The translations under genes and the position numbers were made by a program. Of a stretch of 64,000 nt of DNA, positions 2,890 to 21,582 are shown piece by piece. Source of the stretch: Scenedesmus sp. PABB004 (lineage: Eukaryota); assembly GCA_014905635.1 (NCBI GenBank), contig JABVCE010000026.1:310001-374000 (forward strand), written 5' to 3'. The first letter of the stretch is position 1. Each line of letters opens with the position of its first letter. The notes under the pieces were generated by a model. It saw only the letters and a list, made by a program, of their open reading frames with translations, searched no databases and had not been told where the DNA came from.

Positions 2890-3608
2890 GCGGGGCTGAG
2901 CGACCGCCCGCGCACGCGCTCAGCGGTGCACCACGCGTCGGTGCGCGCGGCAAATGGGGTGAGCTCCTCGAGGGGGGTGGTTACACTCCGTGCGACCACG
3001 CGCCTGGCTAAGCTGCTGCGCCGCGGCGGCGCCTAACGCGAAGAAGAATCAAAAATACACGAGCTCGGTGCTGGGGCACAGGGCCCGCGCGCCGAACAGG
3101 CAGGGCGCAGCCAGGGGGCTGGCGAGTGCAGCGCAGGGGTGCCTCCGCGGGCCGGCGGCATGCAGTCAATCACAGCATGCGCACAAAATGCCAGACAAGG
3201 GCGGCGGCCGCCTCCAACCGGACAGCCCCGCCGCGCGCGATGATGCTCCCTTGCAGGCTGACATCTGTGGCGGTGAAGGGTGCACACCAACTTGGGGGGC
3301 CCGCCGGCGCAGCCAGCCGAGGCCGGGCTGGGCGCTTCCGCAACGCGCAGCCGGCTCAGCCTGGCCGGCCGGAGCGAGAACAAAGGGCGGTGCTGGCGGC
3401 GGCGGCGCCGCAGGGCGCGCCGCAGCCGCGACCAAAGGGCGCTGCTGCGTCTCCCGTCCTTCACACACACACACGCGTCTTCCATTATGCAGGCATCAAA
3501 TGGCACACAGCAATGAAAGCGCGGGCGTCGTTCTTCCTGCTGCAGCGTGCCGCCGCGCGCGTCGCCCTGGCTGCAGGTGGCGCCGCGCGCTGGCGTGCAG
3601 GTCGGCGC

Positions 3609-4639
3609 TTAAGACGGGCGGTCGTTGCCGTTCCAGCTGGGCGCGTTGGCGGAGATGCGCTCGGTGGTGGCCATCGCGACGGCCTGGTCGCCCTGGGCGA
3701 CGACGATGCGCCCGTTGGCCATGCCCGACAGCGCGACCGCCGTCGCGGGCTGCGCGGTGGGACCATACGACGCGACGCGCGTCGCGCGCGGCAGCGCGCT
3801 CGTGCTCGCAGTCAGCATGCTGTTGGCGATGACGGTGCGCTTGCGGCCCTGGTTGACCTGCAGCGCGTCCGGCAGCGCCGCCGAGGTCGCGCCCTCGTAC
3901 GTCTGCGACAGCGCGGCGCCGCCCATGGCCACGACGGGGATCTGGGGCGCGCCGGACGAGAGGTTGACGCTGCCGCGGGGCAGGTCCTGCGCGGAGCGCG
4001 CGCGGGGCTTGACCGCCAGCTTGTTGCGGTCGGGGTTGAGGGTCGCGGGGTCAGACTCCACGGTCGCAAACGAGAGGGGGTCGGTCGGCGCGAGACGGTA
4101 GAGGCCTGCGCGCCGCGGGGCGGGCGGCGCAGCGCGGGCGGGGTCAGCACGGTCGGGCGGCGCGAGGCGGCGCGGCGCGCGTGGCGGCGGCGCGGCCGCG
4201 CAGGCAGGCAGGCAGGCAGGCGCGGCAGGCAGGCGCGGGCAGGCTGCCGCGCGGGGCGCGAGCGCGGCGCGGCGCGCACCAGGGAAGGCAGCATTGGCGG
4301 TCGCCTCAGCGGCCTCGGGCGTGAGCGCCTGCCTGTTGGCCGACCTCAGCGGGTTGACCGAGCGCGCGCGGGTGTACGCGCTGTAGCCGGACGGGTCGCC
4401 CTGGTCGCCCCAGCGGTCGGCCCGGAGCAGGCGCAGGCGAATGGCGCCGCCGGTGGGCAGCAGCGCGGCTGCGGGCGGCGCGGGCGGGTGGTGAGTGCGG
4501 GGAGCTCGGGCGCGCCGGCTGAGGCGCGCGGGGTGCCTGCTGTTGCCGCGGCGCGCCCAACGGGTCCGCGCACAGCGCGCCGCTCACCAGTCGCCACCAG
4601 CGCCACCAGCGCGGCCAGGGCCTTGTGAGAGCGCGCCAT
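3609..4639 (-). CDS. Secreted protein A of unknown function (245 aa), paralog of 20508-21582
   Basis: Exons 4639-4588, 4468-4280, 4105-3609. Signal peptide MARSHKALAALVALVATAALLPTGGA; no Cys; colinear similarity to protein B. Confidence 0.85.
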
Positions 4640-6039
4640 GCTGTCTTGTGTGGGCTGAGAGTCGTGCCGGCGACGGGAGCAGCAGCCTGCGGGGCGGGGG
4701 CGGGCAGCGCGGGCTTTCGTGAGGCGCGCGCCCGGCAAGCGCGGGGCCCGGGAGCACTGCAGCCGCTGCTGGAGCGCGTGGAGGTCGGCACAAGCACGGC
4801 CGACTTGTTGGCGGCGTCGCGGCGTGCAGGCGCACCGCACCTGAGCTGGGAGGGCTTGGCTGGCTGCTGGTGTCGGGGGCTGGTGACTCTCCGACGGCTG
4901 TCTACAACGTCTGCTCGTGTTGCTCCAACGCGACGCCTTTAGTAGCGCAGCGCGGGCCCTCGAAACGGCGCAGTAGGCCCGTCACAGCTGCCGTGGGGGT
5001 TAGGAGTTCGACCGGTTGGTCCCCCGCGGCCCCCGTTTTGGGAGTTGTGCGCCGAATCCGTGCGCCGCGAACGCGTTCCAGGCCCGCCAAGGCGTGGGAC
5101 GCGTTGCCACGCGGCGCGCCGGGCTGATGGGCGCGGCGGGGGCAGCCACGATGGTCCGGGATGGCGGGAGCAGTCGCTCGCGCCCAGGCGCGAGCCCGCA
5201 GCGCGCCAGCAGCTGCGTCACAGGCGTCTGCAGCATGAAGGCATGGCAGGCGCGGTCGACCGCCTGAGCGCGCACCGGCGCGCCGGAACAGGCTGCGCGC
5301 TGGTGCGACCAGCGCTGCTGCCGCTGCGGACCTGCCGCATTGCGTGCTGGTTTGTGGGTCTGGCAGCTGCCAGGGAGGCTCACAGCAGGTGGTGAGGCCC
5401 AGACCGGGTGGCGTGGGGTGGCGCTCACGTTGCATGCCTCACCTCGCGTTCCTGAGGCGGGCCTGCGCCAGCCCACACCGTCGGCAGGCGCCCGGTGGCG
5501 CTCGGCCGCTCAATGCCGCGCGACCGCGCGCGCAACAACACGCACACCAACCCTGATCACGCTCTGCACAGCTGCCGGCCGCCGCGTGGCGCGATTGCAG
5601 CCCGCGCGCCGGCGCCGGCGCGGCTCTCTCTCGTGGGCGCGTGGGCATGGGCCGGTGACCCTCCATGTGTGAGGCCCATGCGCCGCAGCGAGCTAGACAC
5701 CCTGCCATCATAGAAGCCCGCCCTGGCAATCTGCAGATGTTAGGAGCACACCCGTTGCCGCCGCGCGCCGCCGCGCGCAGCTGGCGCCGCATGTCCAAGA
5801 GAAGCCCGGCGGCCTCGCGGCGCGCCAGTGCAGTCCTGCCCCGTCCCCCACCCGTGCCCGTTATTTGTAGGCAGCACCCGGCAAGCGCAGTGCGGCCGAT
5901 ATGGGCCCCGCGGAGGGGGCGCGCGCGCGCGCAGGCATTATGGCACGCGGCGCCCCCACGTATAATGAGCGACAGACAAAGCGCAGTGCAGTTTGCAGTC
6001 GTGCGTGGTGTCGGCCGGGGGTGCGGCGCGCGGCCGCGC

Positions 6040-7779
6040 TCACGGCAGCACGCCGCTGTTCGCGCCGGCCGACTTCCAGTACGAGCTCTCGTCGCGGCCG
6101 AGCTGGATGACGGCCGTGTCGGCGTCCTTGGCGCCGCCGCCGCGCTCGTGGGACGCGCGCGCGCCGCCGCAGACGCGCGCGAGCAGGCTCGCGCCGGCCG
6201 CCGAGACGGCGTCGCCGATGCCGCCGTACGCGAGGCCGAGCGACACGCCGACAAAGCCGGCGCCGCCAATGAAGTTGCCAAGCGTCGCGGGGATGAGGTT
6301 GCGCACGAGGAACTGGCCCACCGTGATGGGCGCGCCCAGGCGCATCGCGAGGGGGATGAGGAACCTGCGCGCCGGGGCGGGTCGGCGGGCGGGTGCGCGA
6401 GTGGGCGGTTGGGGCTGGCGCGGCAGCGCGCGCGGCCGGGCGGGTGGCCCGGGCGCCTGGGCGCCGCCGCCGCGCGCGCGCGCAGGCACGCGCGCGCGGG
6501 CGTCGGCCCGCCGCCCCGCGGGCGCTCACATGTTGGCGACGCAGTGCTCAAAGCCCATCGTCACGAAGGCGGAGATGGGGAACCAGACGCCGAGCAGCTT
6601 GCCGGTCATGTCCTGCGCCGCGGAGGCCTGCCACATGGCCATGTTGACCAGCCAGTTGCACATGATGCCCTTGCACATCGTGGCAACAAAGGGGAAGCTC
6701 ACCTGCGCGGTGCGACGGCGGCGCGGGCGGCGCGGGCGGCGCGGGCGGCGGGGGCGGCTCGGGGGCCGGCCGCGCGGGGCGCGCCGCGCTGCAAACGCGC
6801 GCCGCGGCGCAGCGCGGCGCGGCGTGGGCTCTTGCCGCACCTTCTTCATTGCGAGCTCGATGGTGAAGTCCTCGCGGTGCAGGAAGACCTGGCCCGAGAT
6901 GACGAGCTGGCCCACAAACAGGCAGCCTGCGCGGCGGGCGCGGAGGGCGCGGCAGCGGCGGCGTGTGCTGAGCTGAGCCGCGCGCGCGTGGGATGGGGCC
7001 GCTGCGGGCGGGGCTCGTGTTGTTGTTGTTGCGGCGAGGCAGCGGGGGGTTGTTGATGGTGCGGCGGCCGCGGCCTCACCCGCGAGGTTCATGAGGTAAG
7101 AGAGCACCAGCACGCTGAGGATCTGCCTCATGTTGGCGCGGCGGTGCAGGCCGGCGGCGACCATGTAGCTCATGTTGCCCGTCACCAGGTTGCCTGCGCG
7201 CGCCCGCGGGCGGCGGCGACGGCTCAGGATAGCCGCAGGCCCCGCCGCGCGCCGCGCCGCGCCGCCGGACTGGGCCCGGGCGGTGCGCGCGAGCACGCAC
7301 CGCCGGCGAGGACGATGAGTGAGAGGCCGAGGGGGAAGCCGAAGGCGCCGAAGAGGGCGTTGAAGAGGCCGGGCTCGGCCATGCGCAGCGCCTTGCTCAT
7401 CTGCCCGCCCGCGAGCATGCAGGTCGTGAAGCCGTAGCCCAGGTAGCAGCCCGCCAGGACGGCCAGCACCGACTGCTGCAGGTAGGTCATGCTCGGCCGC
7501 TTCTCGCCTGATGGAGGGGGCCGGGCCAAGCGCCCGCTTGGTGAGGGAGAGCCAGCGGCGTGCGTACCGCGCGGGCCGGGCCAGCCGCCGGCCCAACGCC
7601 GCCGCCTTCGCCGCCGCCGCCGCCGCACCGACATCCAGCAGGTGCGCGTAGATCTCGGACGGGGAGAGGCAGGCCCGGACCACGGGCGGGTCGGCGTGCG
7701 CGACGGGGGCGTGGTCGCCGTCGGCCGCCCCGCCCTTGGCACCCTTGGCCACGTCCATGGCGGAGGCCGCGTGATGCAT
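6040..7779 (-). CDS. NAR1: Formate/nitrite transporter (FNT; NAR1/LCIA family)
   Basis: Six exons, five GT-AG introns. Motifs [75 protein letters not shown]. Start ATG at 7779 or 7758. Confidence 0.95.
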
Positions 7780-8401
7780 CTCACGGGATGGTGATGCTCA
7801 CCGACAACCTTGGAAGCCTGCTGGGAGGCGGGGCGGCACGGGCGCGCGCGTTGGCGGGCGGCCCCGCGAACGATGCGACCAGCAGCTGCGAGGCGGGCGC
7901 GCTCAACGCGGCGCCCACGCGCGCCCTGCTGCTCGTTTAGCCCAGCATTTGCTCGCGCATTGCTTTTTTCGTGCCGCGCTCGGTTGTAGGGTCAGCGCGC
8001 GACCGCAGGACCATCGTGACCGCGCGCGCGCCAACGCAGCCCGCCGCACCTCACACGCGCCAGCTCGCTCGTCTGCGCAGTTCAAGCTGCTGGTGAACTC
8101 GTTACAAGGAGTCTGGGAGCACGAGGGAGCGAGAGGGCGCTGTGCGGCGCGGCGGGGCACCGTCTTTTCAGGGCGCGGTTGGGGTCTCACTCCTGCGCGT
8201 CCCGACCGCCCGGCTGCTCCCACAGCTTCCCACAGCTCTTCCTATGACCCACGGTACAGTCTCGACCGCGCCCAGCGCCCAGCGCGCACAACAGGCCGCG
8301 CGACAGCCGAGCTCGAGCCGCCCGGAAGGCGCGAGCCCGGACGCAGCCGCGTTATGAGCGGCTCGAGCTCCGGCTAGCTAGACGCAAGCAAGCGCTCCAC
8401 C
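7780..8401. promoter_or_regulatory. Divergent intergenic region, putative bidirectional promoter of the FNT and bestrophin genes
   Basis: About 620 bp between oppositely oriented start codons. No specific element identified. Confidence 0.5.
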
Positions 8402-10888
8402 ATGGCAGCGCGCCTGGCGCTGCAGCGCCCCGGGCTGGCGGCGCGGGGCCCGCGCGCGAACAGGGCGGCGCGCGCGCAGCTGGCCCGCAGCCACTCGCCC
8501 GGCCCCCAGCAGTTCAACGGCGGCTCGGTGGACAGCGCGCGGCTGGCGGTGGATCCCGACAAGGAGGAGAGCCGCAAGTACCGGCGCACGGTGCGCGCGC
8601 AGCAGCGCGCGGCGGCGATGCCCGCGGCAGCACTACTCGCGGCGACGCACGCGGCGGCAGCGGCGCTGCCGGTGCCGCGGCGGCGGCTCAGCGTGTCCCC
8701 CTGGCGCGCGGCGGCGACGCTCCTGGCAGCGCTTGCGGCGGTGCCGCGGCGGCGGCTCAGCGCGCCCCGCGCGCGCGCGCGGCGCAGGTGTTTGACCACG
8801 AGCACTGGGCGCACCACCGCACGACTGGGCGCTACGCGCGGCACATGGCGACCGCGCTCGACTCGTACATTGTGCGCGGCCTGGCCGGCCCGCTCGCGTA
8901 CGTCGCGGGCGTCGCGCTTGCCGTCACCACGTACGAGCACGCGCGCGACGCCGGCGGGCTGCCGGGATGGCCCAGCCTCGCGCTCGACACGCTCGGGCCG
9001 TTCAGCCTCAGCACCTTTGCGCTCTCACTGCTGCTGGCGTACCGGACCAACGCGTCCTACCAGCGGTGCGCGGCCGAGGCAGGCAGCCGGGGGCGCCGCG
9101 CGGCGCGCGGCCGAGGTAGCGGTAGCCCGCCGGGGGCGCCGCGCCGAGGCGCGCGCGCGCCGCCGCCGCTGAGGCGCCGCCGCCGCCGCCGCCGGCGCGC
9201 AGGTGGTGCGAGGCGCGCAAGCTCTGGGGCGCCGCGATCAACCGCACGCGCGACCTCGCGCGCCAGGCGACGCAGTGGTCCCACCCCACGGCCGACGCGG
9301 GGCTCGCGGCCGCGATGTGCCGCTGGACGGCGGCGTTCCCCTACGCCCTCGCCGCGTCGCTGCGTCAGGACATGGACCTGGCGGCCAGTCTGCGCGGCGT
9401 GCTCGCGCCGCACGAGGCGGAGCTCGTCCTGCGCCAGCCCCACGCCGGCACCGCCGTCCTGCAGGCCCTGGTTAGCGCTGGCGCGCCGCGCGGCGCGCGA
9501 GCGGCGCGGCGCCGCGCCGACCCCCGGCGCAGCGCTGACCCCCGCGGCCGCCGCGACCGCGGCCGCAGGGCGCGTACGTGCGGGCGAGCTGCATGCGCGA
9601 GGCCCACAAGGTGCGCTGTGGCGGGCGCGCGGGGCCGCTTGGAGCCGGGCGCCGCGCCGCCGTGTGATATACGACGTCCTGACCCCCTCCCCTCCCCCCG
9701 CACCCCACCTGCCGCAGCTGCGCATCGACGAGAACATCACGGCCCTGCAGGACATCATGGGCGGCTGCGAGCGGGTGCGGCCGGGGGCCGAGCGCTCGGC
9801 GCCGGCGCGCCGGCGCGCCTTGCGCCGCGCGGCGCTCGCGGGCAAGCTGTGACCCGAGCCGCCCCGCCGCCGGCCGTGGCGCCGCCGCCAGATCTTCAAG
9901 ACGCCCATTCCCCTGTGCTACAGCCGCCACACCAGCCGCTTCATCGTGAGCTGCCGCGCCGGCCGGCCGGGGGCACGGCGGGGCGCCGGGCGGCGACGGC
10001 CGCCGCCGCGCGCGCGCCGTTCCCCGTCTCACGGCCGCGCCCGCGCGCCGCAGGTGTGCTGGACGACCCTGCTGCCGCTGTGCCTGGTGGGCAGCATGCA
10101 CTTTGGGGCCGTGCCCGCGTCCGTCGTCCTCGCGTTCTTCCTCTATGGTGAGGCGCGCCGGCCGCAGGGGCGGGCGCCCGGCTGCCGCGCGCCGGCCGCG
10201 CCGCGGCCCGCCGGCGGGGACGGCTGCCGGCGCGCGCGCTGCCGGCGGGGCGCTTGCGCGCGCGCCGCGCCCGCGCCGCGCCGCTCAGCCGGCCGCCTGC
10301 CTCGCCCCCGCCGCCGCCCCTGGCCAGGCATCGACGAGGTCGGCGTGCAGGTGTGGACGGGCGGCCACCGCCGCCGTGCGCCGGGCCTCGGCGGCGCCGC
10401 CCCGCTCACAAGTCGCCGCCGCTCGTACCGCCGCGCCTCCGCCGCTCGTGCCGCCGCGCCTCCGCCGCCGCCGCCGGTCGCAGACGGAGGAGCCGTTCTC
10501 GATCCTCGCCCTGGAGAGCTTCTGCGCCACGATCGCGGACAACGTGCGCCAGGCCGAGCAGGCCGCCGGCGCGGCGCGCGCCGCGGCCGAGGCCGAGGCG
10601 GCGGGGCCCGCGCCTGGCCAGCCGGCGCTGGCCGACGCGGCCGCGGCGCTCGTCGCTGCGAGCGGCGGCAGCACCGCGGCCGGCAGCGGCCCGCTCAGCG
10701 TGCGCAGCACGCTCGTGCGCGTGCCGGGGTCGGGCTTTGCCCTGCTCGTCTCGCCCGGCGACGCCGAGCGCGAGCGCGCGCGCGGCGCCGCGCTGGACGA
10801 GCTCCAGCTGGAGGAGGAGGGGCTGGGCATGGCCTCGTCGGTGAGCGGCGCCGTCGGCACCCACGACGCCGACTACACCTTCTCTTGA
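8402..10888 (+). CDS. Bestrophin-like anion channel (VCCN1/BST family) with plastid transit peptide and C-terminal extension
   Basis: Nine exons. KEESRKYRRT|VFDHEHWAHHR, LLLAYRTNASYQRWCEARKLWG, GGCER|IFKTPIPLCYSRHTSRF, GIDEVGVQ|TEEPFSIL. Arg/Ala-rich N-terminus. Confidence 0.95.
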
Positions 10889-11630
10889 GGGCTGGCTTGC
10901 ACGCGCTCGGCCTGGTGCCAGGCCGCCAGGCGAGCAGCATGATGCCGCGTGGGCGGGCTCGAGCTCGGTGGGGCCCACTGACCGCACTGCGCTCTCTGGT
11001 TCGGGGCGCGCGCTGCCGCGCTGGGTTTGTTCAATGATGGGCGCGCGGTGACAGCGGGGCGGAGCGGGGGGTCTGGACATGGCTTGAGGGCAAGGGTTTT
11101 GCGCTGGGGGCTCCGCAAGCCCTGCCTGCAGGAGGGCCTGCTGCTCCCCGCGGGGTTTACTAATTCATGCGCATGACGTCAGCAGATGACACCATAATGT
11201 CACGTGACGACGACGCGACACTGATCTGGCGAGTTTCAGTTTCATAACGCGCCGTCGCGGCGCGGCACAACGCCGCCCGGCGCCGGCGGCCGCTCACTGT
11301 TCTGTTTTCTATTGCGCTTGCGCCCCCTTTTCCCTATGTGTACACCCCGCCTGTCACCTGCACTGTCTGTCGCGCACGCGGCGCGGCGCGCACGCGAACG
11401 CATGTCTGCTGCGGCAGCTGGCCGCCGGCAGTCAGCCGCCGGCCGCCGCCAGGGCGCCGGGGCTGTCAGATCCTAATGCGCGAGCAAGTCGCAAGCCTGA
11501 TCAGTGCTCGCTCTCGGCCGCGCAAGCCGGCCGCACCTGTAAATCACGCACACGCACACCAGCTTCAGGATCGCCCCCACCGCGTTCCCCGTCCCGCCAG
11601 CCAGCCGCCCCGGCTCCGGCTCCGGCGCGC

Positions 11631-14600
11631 TCAGTTGGCGCCGCCGGTGCTGCCGTTGGCCGAGCCGCCGCCGCTGCTGCTCACGCCCTTCTGCTCCAGC
11701 AGCGCGTTGAGCTTCACCTCCAGCGTGGAGAGGTCCTCGTACATCGCAGGCAGGTCGAAGCCCTGCGCCCGCGCGGGACGGCAGAGGCGGCGCGTTTGGC
11801 GCGGCGGCGCAGCGGAGCGGGGCGGCGCGGCAAGGCGGCGGCGGGGCGGGGCGGGCGCGGCGCGGCGCCGCACGCCGGCCGCCGCGCACCTCCCACGCGA
11901 AGTGGCGTTGCGAGAAGGTGCGGTTGGCCACCCACACCGCGCTGTTGCACTTGAAGCCTGCGGGGGCACGTGGGCGCGTGGACGCGCGGCACAGCGCGGC
12001 GCAACGCCCCAGGCCCTGCGTGACAGCCCGCCCGCCTTGCCCGCCCCGCGCCCCGCGCCGCGCACCGGAGCCAAACGCGATCTGCAGCACCTTGTCGCCG
12101 CGGCGCAGGCCCCTGAAGTGCTCGATGAACGCGAGGACGTACCTGCAGGGCGGCCGGGGCGCGGCCAGGGCGGGGACGGCGGCGCGGTGCTGTGGGCACG
12201 GGGCAGGGCCGCGCCGCGCCGCCCGAGCGCCAAGGCAGCGCCCGCCGCGGCCGGCGCCGTGCCGGCGCGGCCGGCCGCCGGCCGGGGCCAGCCGTGTCGC
12301 GGCGCGACCCCCCCCCCGCCCCCGCCCCTGCGCACCACACGCTGCTGCTGGAGACGTTGCCGTAGCGGTAGAGCGCCGCGCGGCTGGGCTCCACGTAGGC
12401 GTGGGTGAGGCCGAGCTCGCGCTGGATCGCGTCCACCACGCCGCGCCCGCCTGCGCCGCCGCGGCGCCCGGGGCGTCGGCCGGCCGCGCGGCGCGCGCGG
12501 CCACCGCGCCGCGGGCCAGCGCGCGGCCACTGCGCCGCGCGGGCCACGTGCGGCGGGCCGGCGCACCGGTGTGGATGCAGATGTGCTTCGCGGCGACCTG
12601 GAAGTCCGGGACGTACGCCGGCACGCGCAGGCGCAGCAGGCGCCGCGCGACGAGGTTGGCGGCAAACGCGAGCTGCTCGCTCAGCGGCAGCACGCGCGGG
12701 CCGAGCGCGGTAATGTTGGCGCGGAGCGCCTTGCCTGCGGCGCCGGCAGCATCGGCGGCGGCGGCGGCGGCGGCGTTGGCGGGCCACGTCACGCCGCCCG
12801 GCGGCTGCCGGCCGGGCGCCAGCCGCAGCCCCTGGGCAGACGTGCGTGCGGCGTGGGGCGCCCGAGGTGCCCCGGCCGCGGGCGCACGCCTGCGGCGGCC
12901 CGCACCCGCGATGCGCATGAGGTCCCTGCTCAGCTTCACGCCGCGGTGCCCCGCCGCGTCCTCGCGCTCCATCACCTGCGCGCGCGGCGGCGGCGGTCGA
13001 CACCACCACCACGTCGGACGGCGCGGGCGCTGGCGGCGGCGGCGCGGGCGGTGCAGGAGCGCGCGCGCGACGCACGCAGTTGAACGACGCCGCGTCGCCC
13101 GCGAGCGTGGTGCGCTGCACGCAGTCCAGCCGGTACTTGGCGCGCCTGGGGGGGGGCACAGGCGCGGCTCAGGTCGAGCGCCGTCCAGCCACCCGCCCCA
13201 GTCCGCCGCCCCACCCCCGCCGCGCGCCGCCAGCGCCGCACCAGGCCTCGCTGCGCCGGTTGCTGATGAGCATCGCGGCGCCGCCGACGCGGAAGAGGAC
13301 GTTGGGAATGAGCATGCTGCGCTCGGTGCCCATGTACATGTTCTGCGTGATGTTCTCCGTGCTCACGACCAGCGCGTAGCCGCCGCGGCCGCGCATCGCG
13401 AGCAGCTGGCGCGCGAGGTCCACCGCGATCGGGCTCGCTGCGCGCGGCAGGGCGGCGGGGCGGCGGGGCGGCAGGGCGGCTGGGCGTGAGGGCGGCCGCC
13501 GAGCCGAGCCCACGCCGCGCCCGGGGCCGCGCGCGCGGCGCGCTGCTGCGCGCCGCGCCCCGCCGCGCCTGAGCAGCCCATGCCGCCGAGGTTGTAGGTC
13601 ATGGTGGTGGCCGGCATGCCAAAGTGGTGCATGACGTGGGCCGCGAGGCTCGGCGTGGGGCAGAAGAGGCTGCAGTTGACGATGACGACGTCGATCCGCC
13701 GCGGCGACACGCCCGTGCGCTCCAGCAGCTCGCTGCGGCGGCGTTGGCGCGTCGGCGGCGTTGGCGCGTCGGCGCGGCGGCGCGGGGCCGGCTGCGTTGC
13801 CGGCGGGCCCGGGCCCAGTGGCCCGGAGGCCGCGTCGCGCGCGTGGGCGCACCGGCAGGCCTTAATGACGATGAGGTCAAACTCAAGCTTGGCCTTCTCG
13901 ATGCTCGTGTCCTGTGGGTGGTTGGCGAGCCAGGGCGGCAGGTAGGTCTCGTTGCCGAGGCCGCCAAACCACAGCACCTGCGGCGCGCGGGCGGCGGCGG
14001 CGGCGGCGGTCAGGGCGCGCGGGCGGGGGCGGTCAGGTCGGCGGCGCGCCGTGCGCACGCGTGCGGCGGCTGCGGCTGCGGCGGCGGCGGCCGCGCAGCG
14101 CCGCGCCTTGCGCTGGAAGTCGACCGCCTCGCGCGAGAAGTGCTGGCTGCTCTCGGCAAAGTTCTCAGAGTCGAGGCGGCTGCAGATCCAGCTGCAGGGG
14201 CGACGCGGCGGCGGCGCGGGGCTCGGCGCGGCGAGCGCCCGCGATGCCTGCCGGAACCCAGAGCACGATGCGGTGGTGCGGTGATGCTGGGCGGGGCGGC
14301 CAGCGCGGGCGCGCAACCCACCTGTCGTCGGGGCGGGCGACCTGGAAGTCCACCAGGTAGGTGGCGCGCCGGCGCAGCGCCCACGCCGCGCCCACGCCCG
14401 CGAGCGCCAGCGCCGCGCCGAGAAGCAGGTGGAACTGCGCGCGGCGCGCGCGCGCGGGTTGGCGGCGCCGCCGCCCACCGGCCGCGCAGCGCGCGCTGTG
14501 CGCGCCGCCGGCGCACCAGCTCCAGCTCCACGCGCGTCGCGCGCGCGGCGTCCAGCAGTGCCGCCAGCGCGCCGCTGGCGCTCATGGACTGGAGCTTGAA

Positions 14601-14917
14601 CTGCGGCAGCGGCGGCGGCGGCGGCGGGCGTGTCAGCAGCGCGGGCTGGATCGTCGCCGGTCGGTTGGGCGTCGGTTTCGCGCGCGCCGCACCGCGCCGA
14701 CCGCCGCCGCGGCCACCGCCGCGGCGGGCAGCGTCTTCTGCACCACCACGTCAATTGCGCGCTTGGCCAGCGCCAGCTGCGGCGAGTCTGCGGCGGCGGC
14801 GCGCGGCGCGCTCGGCGGTTGGCGCGGCGCGGCCCGCACGGGCCGCCGCGGCCCTGGCCCGCCCTGGTCCGGGCGCGGCGCACCTGGCGCGCGCCCGGGC
14901 GCCGGTGCGGCCGCCAT
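11631..14917 (-). CDS. KCS: 3-ketoacyl-CoA synthase (FAE1/KCS, very-long-chain fatty acid elongase condensing enzyme)
   Basis: About 15 exons. [28 protein letters not shown] (catalytic Cys), [46 protein letters not shown]. Confidence 0.96.
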
Positions 14918-15322
14918 GGCGCGTCGCGGCGTGCGGGGAGGCGCGGTCGTGCCGCGGTCGAGCTGCGGGCGCGAGCTGGGCGGCCCAGCAATTCTGGGGC
15001 TGGTGGCCTGCGACAGGAGAGACTCGGAGCCGACTGGGGGGCGTGCCTGCCAGGGCGTGCGGGAGCTGGACCGCCCAGCATCGCGCGCGGTCGGGGCTCT
15101 GTGTGTCGCGCCCGCGCGCCTGCGTGGCCCCGCTGCCCACGCGTCGCGATCGTGGAGCAGCGTCTGACGCGCGAGGCGAACGCTTGCTCAGCAGCAGCAC
15201 CGCAGCAGCAGCACCTCCCACGGCCTCGCAGCACGCGCTGCGGGCGACGGCGACCCGCCGCTGCCTGCCAGCAGGCCCGGCCAGCGTCCACGCGCGGCTC
15301 GGGGCTCAGGGCGTGCAGCGCC

Positions 15323-16272
15323 ATGGCCCTCGCGGGGGCCCTCCCACGCAGCGCGGCGCCCTGGCGCGCCACGGCCGCCCCGGCCGCGCCCCGGGGCGCG
15401 CCCGGCCACCGGCGCGCCGCCGGGCCGGCCGCGCGGGGCGGCGGAGCCAGCGGCGCCGCCGCCGCGCAGCAGCGCGGCCACACCCCGCCGCGCCGCGCCG
15501 CCCGTGCGCGCGTGGTCGCCTGCCGCGCCGCGGCGGGCGAGAAGAAGCAGCTGCCCATCTTCCCGCTCTCCGTCGTGGCCCTGCCGTCGGCGACGGTGCC
15601 GCTCATGATCTTTGAGGCCCGGTGCGGCGCCGCGCAGCGGGCCGCGGGCGCTGCGTGCGGCCCGCCGAGCGCGCCGCGCGTGCCACGCCGCAGGTACCGC
15701 GTGCTGTTCAACACGCTGCTGGCGGGCGCGGAGAACGTGGACGAGGGGCTCGTGCAGCAGGAGAGCCCGTTTGCGGGTGCGCGCGGCGCCGCCGTCGGAA
15801 GCCCCGCCCCGCGCCGTCCCCCGCGCCCCGCGCCCCGCGCCCGCGCCGTGCGCACAGCGCCGCGCGCGTCGACGCCGCGCCGACGCCGCGCGGCGCAACA
15901 ACGCCGCCAGGGTCGCGGCGCTTTGGCATGTGCTACGTCGACGAGAAGGGCCGCATGTCGACGGTCGGCACGACGCTCGAGATCCAAAACTTTGTGCTCG
16001 ACCCCTCCGGCCGCATGTACGTCACGTCCAAGGGCCTCGAGCGCTTCCGCGTCACCAGCGTCATCGCCGAGCGGCCCGTCATGCTGTGCGAGGTCGAGGT
16101 GCTGCCCGAGGACGACCCCGACGCCAGCGACGAGGCGCGCGCCCGCGCCGCGCCGCGCCGCCGCAGCCCGTGGCGCCGCGCCGCCACGCCGCAGCCCGCG
16201 CAGCCGCCGCGCGCCGCAGCCCGCGCCGCCGCGGCCCCCGCCGCCGCGCGCCGCCCGCGACCCGGGTCGCCT

Positions 16273-16327
<55 letters not shown>

Positions 16328-16898
16328 TGCCGCTGCCGCCGCCGCGGCCAGGCCAAGGCGCTCGCGGGGGAGGTGGGCGAGCTCTTCCGAAATGTGCTGC
16401 GCCTGCACGTCAAGGTCACCAAGAGCCGCGCCGCGGCGCGCGGCGCGGGCGCGCGCGGGCCGGGCGCCGCGGCCGCGAGCGCGGCGGAGAGCAGCGACGC
16501 GGAGGACGAGTCGATGGAGCCGCTGGAGCTCACCGAGCTGGGGCCGCGCGAGCTCAGCTACTGGATCGCGCACGCGTTCACGGTGACACAACGCGCGGCG
16601 CGGCGCGCGCGCGGCGCGTGTTCGGACGTCACCGCGCGTTCGGCCGCCCGCGCGCGCCGCGCGCCACTCGCGCCGCCCGCCCGCGCCGCAGGACTCGCGC
16701 TACACGCAGCAGGCGCTGCTGGAGGAGGACAGCACCATGACGCGGCTGGGCGCTGAGAAGGAGCTGCTGGCGCAGACGCTGAAGTACTACACCGCAGCGA
16801 CGGCGCTGGAGGGCGTGTTCAGCGCCGCGCCGGGCGGCGGCGGCGGCGGCGCCGCCGCGGGCGAGGCGGCGCCGCCGCCGGCGGGCGGCCCCGACTGA
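15323..16898 (+). CDS. LON protease N-terminal (substrate-binding) domain protein, probably plastid-targeted; no protease domain
   Basis: LPIFPLSVVALPSATVPLMIFEAR|YRVLF, RRFGMCY, GRMYVTSKGLERFRV, LSYWIA, QQALLEEDSTMTRL. Five exons. Confidence 0.92.
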
Positions 16899-17653
16899 GG
16901 GGCGGGCGCAGAGCCCGGCAGCCCGGACGCAGAGCGGGGCGGGGCCGGTGTGTTTGGTTTGGTGCGCCGGCGGCGCTGGGTCGTGTGATCCGTGTGTGCG
17001 TGGTGGGGGGGCGCGCCGCTTTGTGGGTCCGTGCGGACGGCCCGAGCCGCCCGCTGAGCGTCCCTGCCGGCGCGCCGTGTGCGAGAGGAGAGCGACGGGC
17101 CCGCGCCCCAGAGCGCTGCCCGCGGCAGCGGCGGGCGGCGCACTCGCGGGGAACGTTGGAGCGACGGTAATCGGGCGAGTGAGTCACACAAATCCACCGT
17201 CGGTCGGCGCAGCGTGCCGCGCAGCGCCGCCGCGGACTTGCTGCCGCGCGATGCGCCCCACCCACCCCCGGCAGCCCCGTCCCCGCCGCCGCGCCCCCGG
17301 ACCCCCCATTGCAGCAGCGCTAGAACAGCCCGGGCGGCGCGGCCCCGCGCGTCCTGGCACCACCACCAAGCGGGCCGCCCGCCCTGCCGCGGTCAAAAGC
17401 TCGTCGTCAGTCGGTCGTCAGCTCGGGGCGGGCGGGCGCACGCGCACGCCCGCGCGCCCGCCCGCCCAGTCATGTGCACGGTGCGCCGCGCGCACGCACG
17501 CGCACCCAGCGGGCGGCGCGGCGCGCGCGCGCTGCGCCGCCGCCGGCCCCCGCCCGCGCGGCGCCCCTCGGCAGCAGCTGGCGCGGCGCCGGCTGCTGCG
17601 GGCGCCGCCGGCTCCCGCCCCCGCCCCCCGCGCCCGCGCGCGGGCGCGGGCGC

Positions 17654-18373
17654 TCACGCACGCGTCGCGCGCGCGCGCCGGGGCGTGGTGGCCCGCGCGG
17701 GCGAGCTCGGCGTGGGCGCGGGCGACTTGGCCGCGCGCGCGCGGCTCGCCGCGGGCGTGGTCGCCGCCGCCGCGCGCCGGCCGCGCGCGGGGCTGGTCAT
17801 GCGCTCCGCCGTCTTGGGCGTCCTGGCGGCCGGCGCGGGCGTGGCCTCGGCCGCCTTGGCGCGGGGGGTCTGCGCCGGGGGCGGCGGCGCCGGCGGCAGC
17901 CGCGCGGCGCGGGCGCGCGTGGGCGGCGGGCGGTTGCGGCGCGGCGCCGCGCGCCGGCCGCGGCGCGGCCCCTGGGCACCCGCGGGCCGCGCCCCCGCGC
18001 TGCGGCGCCGCCGGCCTCGGCCGACGGGCGCCCGGGGGGCGCGGCCGCGGCCAGGGCGGGGCGTTTCGGGCTCGTTGTTAGCGCGCGCCGCCCGGCCCCC
18101 GCGGCGCGCCCCGGCGCCCACCTTGGCCGGCGCGGGCGAGACGTCGCCGCCTCCGGGCGGCTTGTGTTGCCGCGTGCTGCGGCGCACGACGCGGCCGGCC
18201 TCCTCCACCAGCATCGTGCCCGCCTCGAACTCGCCCGGCGCGTCGTCGTCGCTGCGGCGGTGCTTGGGCGGCGGCAGGCTGCTTTTGAGGTAGAGAACGG
18301 CCACAAAGGCAACCAGCGCGGTGGCCACCACGAACGCGGCGACCAGCAAGTCTTCCAGCGTCGGCGGGGCCAT
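17654..18373 (-). CDS. Small single-pass membrane protein with a basic, SP/TP-rich tail
   Basis: ATG at 18373; hydrophobic LLVAAFVVATALVAFVAVLYL; probable GT-AG intron 18121-17870; RVVRRSTRQHKPP; tail with TPR/TPK/SPAR/TPRR. Confidence 0.7.
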   Translation of the reverse strand: MAPPTLEDLLVAAFVVATALVAFVAVLYLKSSLPPPKHRRSDDDAPGEFEAGTMLVEEAGRVVRRSTRQHKPPGGGDVSPAPAKVGAGARRGGRAARANNEPETPRPGRGRAPRAPVGRGRRRRSAGARPAGAQGPRRGRRAAPRRNRPPPTRARAARLPPAPPPPAQTPRAKAAEATPAPAARTPKTAERMTSPARGRRAAAATTPAASRARAAKSPAPTPSSPARATTPRRARATRA

Positions 18374-18656
18374 GGCTGCGGCTGCGCGGGCCTCACGGCA
18401 TGAGCGGGCGGCGCGTCGCACCAGTCGGGCGTGCGCGGGGGCGCGCCGCGGGCCGTGGGCGCCGGGGCGCGCGCGACTGTCATTCGCGCAGCGGTTCGGG
18501 CCGCCCCGCGCCCTGCAGGTGCGGGCGGAGGCGCAGCCGGCCCGCCCACGCGCAGAGCGTCGATCCACGCACGCCACGCGCGCGGCGCCGCCCCCGCGCT
18601 GCGCTGGCGCCCGCGCCAGGCTGGCCAAGTGTGCTGCTGCAGCACACCTCCCAGCG

Positions 18657-19745
18657 ATGCAGGCCGCTGCCCCCGCCCGCGCTCACCGGGTGGCGGGCCC
18701 AGCGTCGGCGTCAGCCTGGACGCGGCGAGCACCGAGCAGCAGCAGGCGCGCCGCGCGCGCGCTGCGGCACCGGGCGGCAGCAGCGCGCGCGCCGCACCAC
18801 CCCCGCAACGACGCGCGCGCACCGCACCGCCGGCAGCTCAGCGCGCCTGGGGGCGCGCCGCCAGCCAGGCCAGCAGCTGAGACCCGGCCCGCCGCGCCCC
18901 GCCCGCCGCGCCCCGCCGCGCCGCGCCCGCCGCGCAGGGCGCGCCGCGTCGCGGCGCGCGGCGCGGCGCCGGCCGCGCAGGCCGCGGCGGCCGCGGCGGC
19001 GGGGCTCAAGGCCGACATCGTGCGCCTCTCTGGCGGCAGGTACGGCCACGACCTGGACGCCGGTGCCCGGGCGGCGGTGCTGGCCAAGGTCGCGGAGCTC
19101 GAGCGCCTTGCGCTGCCCGTGGCGGTGAGCGTCGACGCGCTCGCCGGCACGACGTGGGCGACCGTCTTCACGACCTCGGACGGTGCGCGCACTGTGCGTG
19201 TGTGTGGGGGGGGGGCAGCGATCAGCAGGGCGATCGTGCTTGCCCCGCGCAGCGCACGCGCGGCGCGGCGTCGCGCGGGCCGAGCCAGCCCGCCCGCGCG
19301 CGCCCGCGGCCGTGCGCGCAGGCGCGAGCTCGGGCAAGGTCGGGCCCTTTGTCGCGGAGGTGCGGCAGGAATTCCCCGCGGGCGCGCCGGGCACGTACGT
19401 CAACGTGTCGCGCCTCGGGCTCGTCAGCGCGGCGCTGCGCGGCGAGTGCCGCGCCGGCGAGGGAGGGGACCTCATCGACCTGGAGTTCAAGGACCTGGCG
19501 CTGCGCGTCGGGCCGCTCCGCGCGGCGCACAAGGCGCGCCGCCGTGCCCGCGCCGCAGCCGCAGCTGCGTCGGGCCCCCCTCTGCAGCCGCGCCGCGCCG
19601 CGCGGACACTGCGCCCGCGCGCCGCCGCGCGCAGGAGTTTGCGCCGGGCAGCATGCGCGGGCACTGGCGCATCACGTTTGCGGACGCAGACTTTCGCGTG
19701 TTCTACTCCAACAAGGGCAACCTGTTCGTGCTGCGGCGGCTGTGA
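18657..19745 (+). CDS. PAP/fibrillin family plastid lipid-associated protein
   Basis: LKADIVRLSGGRYG...VAELERL, LAGTTWATVFTT, GKVGPFVAEVRQEF, GHWRITFADADFRVFYSNKGNLFVLRRL. Transit-peptide-like N-terminus. Confidence 0.88.
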   Translation: MQAAAPARAHRVAGPASASAWTRRAPSSSRRAARALRHRAAAARAPHHPRNDARAPHRRQLSAPGGAPPARPAAETRPAAPRPPRPAAPRPPRRARRVAARGAAPAAQAAAAAAAGLKADIVRLSGGRYGHDLDAGARAAVLAKVAELERLALPVAVSVDALAGTTWATVFTTSDGARTVRVCGGGAAISRAIVLAPRSARAARRRAGRASPPARARGRARRRELGQGRALCRGGAAGIPRGRAGHVRQRVAPRARQRGAARRVPRRRGRGPHRPGVQGPGAARRAAPRGAQGAPPCPRRSRSCVGPPSAAAPRRADTAPARRRAQEFAPGSMRGHWRITFADADFRVFYSNKGNLFVLRRL

Positions 19746-20507
19746 GCAGCAGGCTGGGGCGCGGGCGGGACGTCCCGCGGGGTCCTGCTGCAAGGTATTG
19801 GGAAGCTGTTACGTTCCTCCCACGTCGCGTCATGTCGCTCGCTCAGGCAGCGGTGCTTGTGCAGCATCTGCTTTCCCCTCACTCGCAAAAACACGTCGCG
19901 CGCGCGCTGATTAGTTTGGTCAAGCCGAAACCGTCGCCCTCGGGGCGCGCGCAGGGCGGCCCCAGTCCTGCCCGCCGAGTGCGCCGCGGGGCGCACAGCA
20001 CGCGTCGCAGCAGTCTTTGTGCGGCTGCTGAAGTTGGGATGCCCACGCCCCCACCCACCCACTGCAGCCCCCGCCTCCCTCCCCAAGCCGCAGCAGGCTG
20101 TTCGGGCAGCCGCCGGCAAGGCAACTCCCCCACGCTCGGGGCTGTGCGCGTTCCGACTCGCTCGCCCAAAACACACGGGGCACCGCCAAACCGGTGCTGC
20201 TCGCGCATGAAATCTCTGTTCCGCGCGCGCCCTGCAACGGGGCGGCGCCTAGCAGGAGGCTTGGAGCCGCACTCCTGAAACAAACCGGCGTGTACAGGCC
20301 GTTGTACGACAAAACGCTTTTCACGTTAACGCTTTTCCAGGGTAGTACAGGCAGGCACAGGCGTGCAGTGCAGGTGATCGTGGCGACGCGCGCGCGGCCG
20401 GCGCCGGGTGTGTGTGGCGCGCCGGCGCGCGTGGAAATAATCGAGGGGCTGCTGAGCCCCTCGCACTCGTGGGTGCCTCTCGTCTTGTCTTGGGGTGCGT
20501 GCCGTGT

Positions 20508-21582
20508 TTACGCGCGCTCCGTCTGGGCCATGGACACGGCCTCGTTGGCCTGCGGGCGGCGGCGCGCGGCGGGTGGCGTGAGCGCGGCGCGCACGGCACG
20601 CGGTGGCCTGCGCCTGCGCGCGCGCGCGCGCCCGGCAGGGGCGGCGCACAAGCGCGCGCAGTGCGCGCGCGCGCGCGGGGCGCGGCCGAGAGCGCGCACC
20701 TGGGCGAGCACGATGTGGTTGTTCGCCGCGCCGCTCATCGCGTTGGAGAGGATGGGGTTGTTGGAGGTGACGCCGTAGCTGGCGCTGCGCGTGGCGCCGC
20801 GCAGGACGCCGCCGCGTGCGGTAAGGATGGTGGACGACACCGAAGAGCGGCGGCCGGCGTTCATGCCGAGAGAGTCGGTGGTGGAGATGGAGGTCGCGCC
20901 CTCGTAGGTGGTGGCCTTGGCCATGCCGCCCATGACTGCGCGGGACGGGAGGGGCGGGGCAGGGTGAGCCGCGGGTTGGGCGGCGCGGGGGCCGCGGCGG
21001 CGGCCGCGCGCGGAGCTCGGGCGCGGCGGGCGCGGCGCGGCGCGGCGCGGCGGGGGCGGGCGCGGCGGGGCGCACCGAGCGCGGGCATGGAGGAGTGGCC
21101 GTTGCCGCGGTTGGGCCCGCCGCGCGTGATGTCCTGGGCCGAGCGCGCGCGGGGCGTGATGGCGCGGTTGTTGTTGTTGATGTCGGTGCTGTGCGCGTCG
21201 ACGGTCGCGTAGGAGCGCTTGGCCGGCGGCGCGGTGAGGCGGTGCACGCCGCCGAACGCGGAGTTGGCGGTCGCCTCGGCGGCCTCGGGCGTGAGCGCGG
21301 AGCGCGTGACGGTGGACGTGGACCTGGCGGGCTTGATCATGCGCGCGCCGACGATGGCCTCGTTGGAGTTCTGGAGCAGCCGGCGGGCCGCGTCGGCGCC
21401 GGGGCAGACTGCGCGCGGGGGCGGCGCGCGGGGCGGCGGTGAGGTGTCGGCGACGGGGAGGGGGCGCGGGAGCGCGGAGGCCCGCTGGGGGCCACCCACG
21501 CGGCGCCTCTTTTAACGCGGCGGCACCCACCTGCCAGGAGGACGGCGGACACCAGCAGCGCGAGGGCGATGCGGCGGGCCAT
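20508..21582 (-). CDS. Secreted protein B of unknown function (220 aa), paralog of 3609-4639
   Basis: Exons 21582-21531, 21408-21076, 20935-20700, 20549-20508. Signal peptide MARRIALALLVSAVLLAVCPGADA followed by RRLLQ. Confidence 0.87.

Follow-up and report, generated by a model that had tools for sequence, protein, structure and literature searches.

Two diverged genes of Scenedesmus sp. PABB004 encode members of a small, lineage-restricted family of basic, putatively secreted proteins

The window analysed here is a stretch of 64,000 nucleotides from Scenedesmus sp. PABB004 (assembly GCA_014905635.1, contig JABVCE010000026.1, positions 310,001 to 374,000 of the forward strand). On its minus strand it holds two related genes, A at 3609-4639 and B at 20508-21582. 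They represent two old subfamilies of a small, lineage-restricted protein family without a detectable characterised relative, and their products are predicted to be secreted.

Both gene models were obtained by a three-frame reading combined with a scripted splice-site test. The product of gene A has 245 residues, and the gene has introns of 119 and 174 nt, each in phase 1. The product of gene B has 220 residues, and its introns of 122, 140 and 150 nt are in phases 1, 1 and 0. All five introns are of the GT..AG type, with acceptors that read CGCAG or GCGCAG. An earlier reading of the same DNA, hereafter the initial annotation, had claimed that the two genes share a 52-nt first exon that ends in a phase-1 intron within the signal peptide, and that their other introns differ. 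Both features are present in the spliced models: beyond the shared first intron, gene A is interrupted after codon 80.3 and gene B after codons 128.3 and 207. The parts of the two genes are:

4588..4639, minus strand: gene A exon 1, 52 nt, with the ATG at 4639-4637; n- and h-regions of the putative signal peptide; ends in phase 1, donor GTGAGC.
4469..4587, minus strand: gene A intron 1, 119 nt, phase 1, GT..AG; its position matches that of gene B intron 1.
4280..4468, minus strand: gene A exon 2, 189 nt; end of the putative signal peptide, RLLR motif, DPSGY and the ALTPEAAEATANAAF block.
4106..4279, minus strand: gene A intron 2, 174 nt, phase 1; a (GCAG)n-like simple repeat near 4200-4222.
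3609..4105, minus strand: gene A exon 3, 497 nt including the stop TAA at 3611-3609; 164 residues, with most of the conserved blocks.
Blocks within gene A exon 3: SFATVE, PRARSAQD, MGG..TYEGATS, NQGR, LTA, ATRVASYG and SGMANGRIVVAQ..AVAMATTER.
21531..21582, minus strand: gene B exon 1, 52 nt, with the ATG at 21582-21580; ends in phase 1, donor GTGGGT.
21076..21408, minus strand: gene B exon 2, 333 nt; end of the putative signal peptide, RRLLQ, ALTPEAAEATANSAF, SYATV and PRARSAQD.
20700..20935, minus strand: gene B exon 3, 236 nt; MGG..TYEGATS, NAGR, LTA, ATRSASYG and SGAANNHIVLAQ.
20508..20549, minus strand: gene B exon 4, 42 nt including the stop TAA at 20510-20508; encodes ANEAVSMAQTERA.

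The G+C content is about 74-83% along the window, and its genes carry introns. At third codon positions (GC3) it is 0.94 in A and in B, and both look like intact, expressed-type nuclear genes. The spliced B protein is identical, letter for letter, to KAF8057915.1 (P0072; hypothetical protein HT031_005861 of Scenedesmus sp. PABB004), so the model of B has also been reached by independent annotation. The gene A product is absent from the matches of the word-indexed, phmmer and profile protein searches described below; gene A is probably unannotated, or modelled otherwise, in the public annotation of the organism. A (CA)n run at 3464-3476 lies about 135-145 nt downstream of the gene A stop.

The exon translations of A and B match each other by BLASTP with 49% identity over 79 residues (E 9e-19), 44% over 52 residues (E 3e-9) and 65% over 31 residues (E 4e-9). 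At full length, 108 of 215 aligned residues are identical. Every colinear block that had been claimed for the pair was located in both proteins, and the same is true for the blocks of the wider family: TPE-AE..N, (S)[YF]ATV, PRARSAQD, GG-A-..TYEGA, N-GG/R, LT, S-G-T and SG-ANG-I-LAQ..AVA-AQ-E. When four relatives were searched against the window by tblastn, genes A and B were found, and otherwise two matches at chance level (E 0.36 and 0.43).

The initial annotation had further suggested that the duplication is old and has been kept under purifying selection. The ratio of nonsynonymous to synonymous substitution rates (dN/dS) between A and B is 0.70-0.72 by two methods, a value that is uninformative because a GC3 of 0.94 depresses dS. 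Purifying selection is better shown by the long ungapped blocks that are conserved across species. The age of the duplication is addressed by the family tree below.

Searching with the last exon of gene A, a word-indexed method gave 6 matches. Exhaustive phmmer against 1,835,955,588 representative proteins gave 51 matches at E<=1e-3, 23 at <=1e-10 and 2 at <=1e-30, and a profile search of proteins gave 25. One of the 51 phmmer matches, P0059 (3501 residues, Cys-rich repeats, E 8.7e-4), was rejected upon reading its sequence as a spurious match of composition. The last exon of gene A is 62-65% identical to Tetradesmus obliquus A0A383VSI7 (P0006) and other relatives, and over the full length the identity between gene A and A0A383VSI7 is 58%. 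The phmmer E value for A0A383VSI7 is 1e-47. Names were looked up for 30 proteins. The named members come only from T. obliquus, Scenedesmus sp. NREL 46B-D3 and Scenedesmus sp. PABB004, and the other matches are metagenome or run-assembly records. In NREL 46B-D3 the member is KAF6250716.1 (COO60DRAFT_1568831, P0070), an A-type orthologue. The sequences are already partly public, as hypothetical proteins.

The family tree was built from 20 near-full-length rows, and four rows are under half filled. Gene B groups with the T. obliquus B-type OEZ85_003771 (P0025; in the same protein cluster as OEZ86_005506) with support 96/96, and gene A groups with all T. obliquus A-types (92/91), on a branch that is drawn unresolved. 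Since both clades hold T. obliquus members, the split between A and B is older than the separation of these genera. This bears out the proposal that they are old paralogues of a conserved family.

In T. obliquus assembly OEZ86 there are at least five family loci: OEZ86_012225 and OEZ86_012228 lie on one 11.1-Mb contig, and OEZ86_004160, OEZ86_005506 and OEZ86_009288 on three other contigs. A-type and B-type genes are unlinked there, being on different contigs, and the 16-kb spacing of A and B seen here may be ancestral or due to chance. A scan for metagenome loci gave one confirmed locus among 39 pattern matches (L001, on a contig of 58% G+C). The relative encoded there has a phase-1 intron in the signal-peptide region, as in A and B, and an intron at the position of gene A intron 2, between 'F-x-G' and 'x-Y-R', plus one that is not in A.

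The older T. obliquus model P0088 (SZX67354.1, 1165 residues) joins an unrelated upstream multi-pass membrane protein to a complete family member. The member retains its own Met and signal peptide, so P0088 reflects the merging of two gene models rather than a fusion of domains. For annotation, the value of the present models is that gene A is seemingly missing from public protein sets and that one T. obliquus member sits in this merged model. In another alga, P0062/P0065 and P0015/P0064 are two diverged paralogues from a sister clade of the B-type, which share contigs of 12,211 nt and 7,435 nt. In this alga and elsewhere, several members close with an 'RRLL'-like tail reminiscent of the N-terminal R-x-L described below; these tails could be read-through of gene models.

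No known family was found among these proteins. For 13 distinct family proteins or exon pieces Pfam gave 0 families, at E up to 1 or up to 10, and no profile for ice-binding (DUF3494-type), LEA, fasciclin or expansin proteins matched any of the 13. NCBIfam gave 0 matches for five family proteins at E up to 10, and searches of PDB with a single protein and with a 32-row profile returned only noise (E 2 and E 1.5). The profile search of characterised families was thus empty, in agreement with the initial annotation, which had called the family unassignable. The name that P0052 carries in its source (CBM5/CBM33) is unsupported: the protein is without a CBM5/12 or LPMO_10 domain and has 0 Pfam or NCBIfam matches at E up to 10.

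Algal genomes commonly hold orphan families of secreted proteins. What we describe is a new family of this familiar sort, lineage-specific secreted algal proteins; it is no surprise in itself, and nothing has yet pointed to an unusual mechanism. None of the known Scenedesmaceae homologues has a name, a domain or a published function. Six family accessions are not mentioned in the literature searched, and the literature on Scenedesmus and Tetradesmus wall proteomes and secretomes yielded nothing on the family. In a study of salt stress in S. obliquus UTEX393 (PMC12638912), six accessions and six JGI numbers were not found in the readable supplements, of which one xlsx file is incomplete.

The N-termini of A and B resemble signal peptides for the endoplasmic reticulum (ER), as read from the alignment and not by a dedicated predictor. 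The secretion signal proposed by the initial annotation is therefore plausible, and UniProt labels the T. obliquus B-type 'Secreted protein'. In nearly every member with an N-terminus, an Arg followed by a Leu two residues on is found close to where the hydrophobic segment ends, no more than a few residues away. In the family alignment this R-x-L is often R-L-L-R or R-x-L-x-Q, and P0108 has R-K-M-L in its place. A strict automatic test scored R-x-L in only 5 of 19 members, because the length of the c-region varies.

The single Cys of gene B, residue 19, falls within the c-region of the presumed signal peptide. Behind R-x-L, 15 of 15 members have 0 Cys, so the mature parts are Cys-free, as had been claimed. 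The isoelectric point (pI) of the mature chain is 9.2-11.7 in 14 of these 15 members and 7.2 in the remaining one; at about 10.4 and 11.5, the mature chains of A and B are strongly basic. The composition is rich in Ala, Ser, Thr, Asn and Gly, aromatic residues make up 1.9-6.2% of the mature chains, and each of the 15 has 0-2 non-conserved N-glycosylation sequons. Tracts of the kind found in hydroxyproline-rich glycoproteins (HRGPs) are absent, as first noticed: neither A nor B has Ser-Pro(3+) or Pro-rich repeats.

Since R-x-L comes directly behind the signal peptide in almost every member whose N-terminus is present, it might mark the first cut of a pro-protein, which would be processed there and at internal basic sites (PRAR/S, with the cut before the Ser, and GRKR, GKRGNRK or GRR) into signalling or antimicrobial peptides. 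The basic clusters occur at the same alignment positions, and the net charge is positive. However, conservation extends over the whole chain and not over one short peptide, and some of the basic sites differ between members in both sequence and length. Conservation in blocks would fit a structured domain better than a short-peptide precursor, and we regard the peptide explanation as quite unlikely.

In general, conservation in the family takes the form of ungapped blocks of roughly 18-40 columns over about 170 residues, which argues for a structured unit. The structure predictions do not reveal its fold. AlphaFold2 gave a mean predicted local distance difference test score (pLDDT) of 37.4 and a predicted template modelling score (pTM) of 0.15 for the T. 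obliquus A-type, with a 32-row alignment, and 39.7 and 0.14 for the gene B protein, with 44 rows; 0 residues reach pLDDT >= 70 in either model. In the ESM Atlas, the model of the gene B protein has pLDDT 0.28 and pTM 0.13. The alignments are shallow (effective number of sequences, Neff, 3.4), and the AlphaFold failures are therefore not evidence of disorder. Structural neighbours of the ESM Atlas model, all with a template modelling (TM) score <= 0.31 by query, are meaningless at such a pLDDT, and an ESM Atlas feature search gave no usable match for P0008 or P0072.

The long ungapped blocks hold invariant Glu, Asp, Arg and Tyr positions. This would agree with a new globular fold in a secreted protein that acts as an enzyme or in wall remodelling, for example on sporangial (mother) walls or nascent daughter walls around hatching. 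The TPE..AE, ATVE, SAQD and TYEG blocks would then owe their invariant acidic residues to function. All 15 of 15 members are on the folded side of the charge-hydropathy boundary, the shallow alignments keep the AlphaFold failure from being a sign of disorder, and the sharp transcript pulse described below would also agree with an enzyme. In contrast, there is no similarity to Pfam, NCBIfam or PDB entries, the content of aromatic residues is low and that of Ala, Ser, Thr and Gly high, and three structure predictions are without a confident fold. We find such an enzyme unlikely.

From the composition, the initial annotation had inferred a beta-solenoid or self-assembling extracellular protein. 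An amyloid-like or beta-solenoid protein that assembles outside the cell, forming bristles, an adhesive or an ice-binding surface, would agree with Cys-free chains rich in Ala, Ser, Thr, Asn and Gly. Some strand-like periodicity is seen around SYATV and in the C-terminal third, and monomer predictions may fail for folds that depend on assembly. However, when the family profile was compared with itself using hhalign no internal repeat was detected (the best off-diagonal probability is 0.3%), and the beta-solenoid idea is therefore left without support. Further, helix-like and strand-like stretches of hydrophobic periodicity are mixed, with the helix-like ones covering about as much of the chain, there is no confident fold, and no Pfam match to curlin, ice-binding or other repeat families was obtained at E up to 10. 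Self-assembly of this kind is in our judgement very unlikely.

For one member, expression could be followed in published RNA-seq values (PMC7955037, supplementary file 2), where the A-type orthologue of Scenedesmus sp. NREL 46B-D3 is listed as jgi Scesp_1 1568831, with two control series and three replicates in each. In both control series the values are low, about 0-2.9, at time points 1-3 and again at time point 6, whereas time point 4 has 21-30 and time point 5 has 34-69. This is a pulse of 30- to 100-fold at two consecutive time points. The pulse is abolished in the cold, with values of at most 6, and in heat, with values of at most 1.4. The gene belongs to module grey60 of the WGCNA co-expression network, a module for which no annotation is given.

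The cultures were kept in an 18:6 light:dark cycle and sampled 4-hourly (PMC7955037). According to the reply to reviewers, 18:6 was picked to place one light sample directly after the dark period, and with this design time points 4-5 fit dark samples. That division is synchronized in the dark period is stated there for a separate 12:12 experiment. For T. obliquus, a diurnal preprint describes division as beginning just before night and running into early night.

A possible reading, which we favour tentatively, is that A and B are extracellular proteins associated with the wall or matrix, made in a short burst in the dark/division phase, when the autospore walls form. The proteins, of about 20-23 kDa, would be directed into the ER by a signal peptide that is then cut off. 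Strongly basic and Cys-free, the mature chain would begin at or just before the conserved R-x-L and would be laid down in a short burst in the dark/division phase of the diel cycle, as autospore walls are built. Such a polycationic chain could bind acidic wall polymers. A more specific version is a Scenedesmaceae-restricted extracellular protein with a new fold, processed at R-x-L, that serves as a polycation of the autospore wall, the trilaminar sheath or the coenobial glue in the nightly division window. With this much detail the reading becomes unlikely; if true, the protein would be a lineage-specific building block of the Scenedesmus-type wall.

The walls of Scenedesmus and Tetradesmus limit the biotechnological use of these algae, and to our knowledge the protein components of these walls, which consist of a cellulose layer and an algaenan-bearing trilaminar sheath, are almost unknown. 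The family is conserved, lineage-restricted and signal-peptide-bearing, and one member is raised more than 30-fold for a few hours daily and is off under temperature stress. It is therefore a concrete, testable candidate for a role in the wall or the division phase.

Several points weigh against a wall protein of the division phase. Secretion and wall location are predictions here, and any structural role is guessed at from composition and timing, as there is no confident fold. The expression data come from one orthologue, in a species other than that of A and B. The light phase of time points 4-5 is inferred and not read, because the time labels in PMC7955037 conflict: time point 4 is 18 h in the legend of Fig. 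7, as opposed to 4-h sampling and metabolite columns at 16 h. In the same source, heat-stressed cultures reportedly grew like controls yet lost the pulse, so expression does not simply follow growth or division. In the 600 nt upstream of A and B there is no common motif beyond chance; they share 25, 7 and 2 8-, 9- and 10-mers, compared with shuffle means of 22.8, 7.7 and 2.5. Finally, three family motifs were looked for in the one supplementary file on the proteome of maternal cell walls of S. obliquus 633 (PMC11839794), and none was found. The peptide that identified KAF6264724.1, an unannotated secreted protein of 252 residues in that study, is not present in the family.

The negative result for this single wall proteome would agree with proteins that stay inside the cell, as largely disordered proteins of the endomembrane system, the vacuole or another compartment, with the signal peptide and R-x-L used for sorting. 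The very low confidence of the predicted structures would also fit, and the conserved motif beside the signal peptide could be a sorting determinant. However, A and B are without a retention signal, a transmembrane segment or a C-terminal anchor, and conservation is blockwise over about 170 residues. We consider an intracellular location rather improbable.

Between A and B, in the interval 4.7-20.5 kb, 90 stop-to-stop open reading frames were compared with Pfam, which recognises four distinct unrelated genes. The initial annotation had counted six; that the intervening genes are unrelated holds for these four, and the count of six was not reached. The four genes are:

6043-7991, minus strand: formate/nitrite transporter (PF01226).
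8248-11034, plus strand: bestrophin-like channel (PF25539).
about 12700-13900, minus strand: FAE1 / type III PKS-like 3-ketoacyl-CoA synthase (PF08392), exon pieces.
15616-16737, plus strand: LON substrate-binding-domain protein (PF02190), exon pieces.

The formate/nitrite-transporter and bestrophin-like genes adjoin each other in divergent orientation and may form a co-regulated head-to-head pair. Chlamydomonas members of these two families (LCIA and BST1-3) serve the CO2-concentrating mechanism. Synthases of the FAE1-type family produce very-long-chain fatty acids, and precursors of this kind have been proposed for algaenan; the place of this gene between A and B does not by itself connect it with them.

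Three known systems can be compared with the family. The HRGPs of volvocine algae are signal-peptide-bearing, extracellular and made during wall building, features in which A and B would resemble them. However, A and B differ from HRGP wall glycoproteins (pherophorins, GP1-type and extensin-like proteins) in having no Pfam match and in being basic and rich in Ala, Ser and Thr. CsgA and other repeat beta-solenoid fibre proteins are, like the predicted products of A and B, secreted, Cys-free and rich in small and amide residues, and the C-terminal 'SG-x-ANG-x-I-x-LAQ' of A and B loosely recalls what we take to be the curlin repeat. In contrast to CsgA-type proteins, the family is without internal repeats and has no Curlin_rpt match at E up to 10. 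The R-x-L of the family, which is known here from sequence alone, presumably resembles the diatom RXL propeptide site, the Plasmodium PEXEL motif (RxLxE/Q/D) and the oomycete RxLR. It differs from them in its position, as it abuts the predicted cleavage site and is not placed 15-30 residues downstream.

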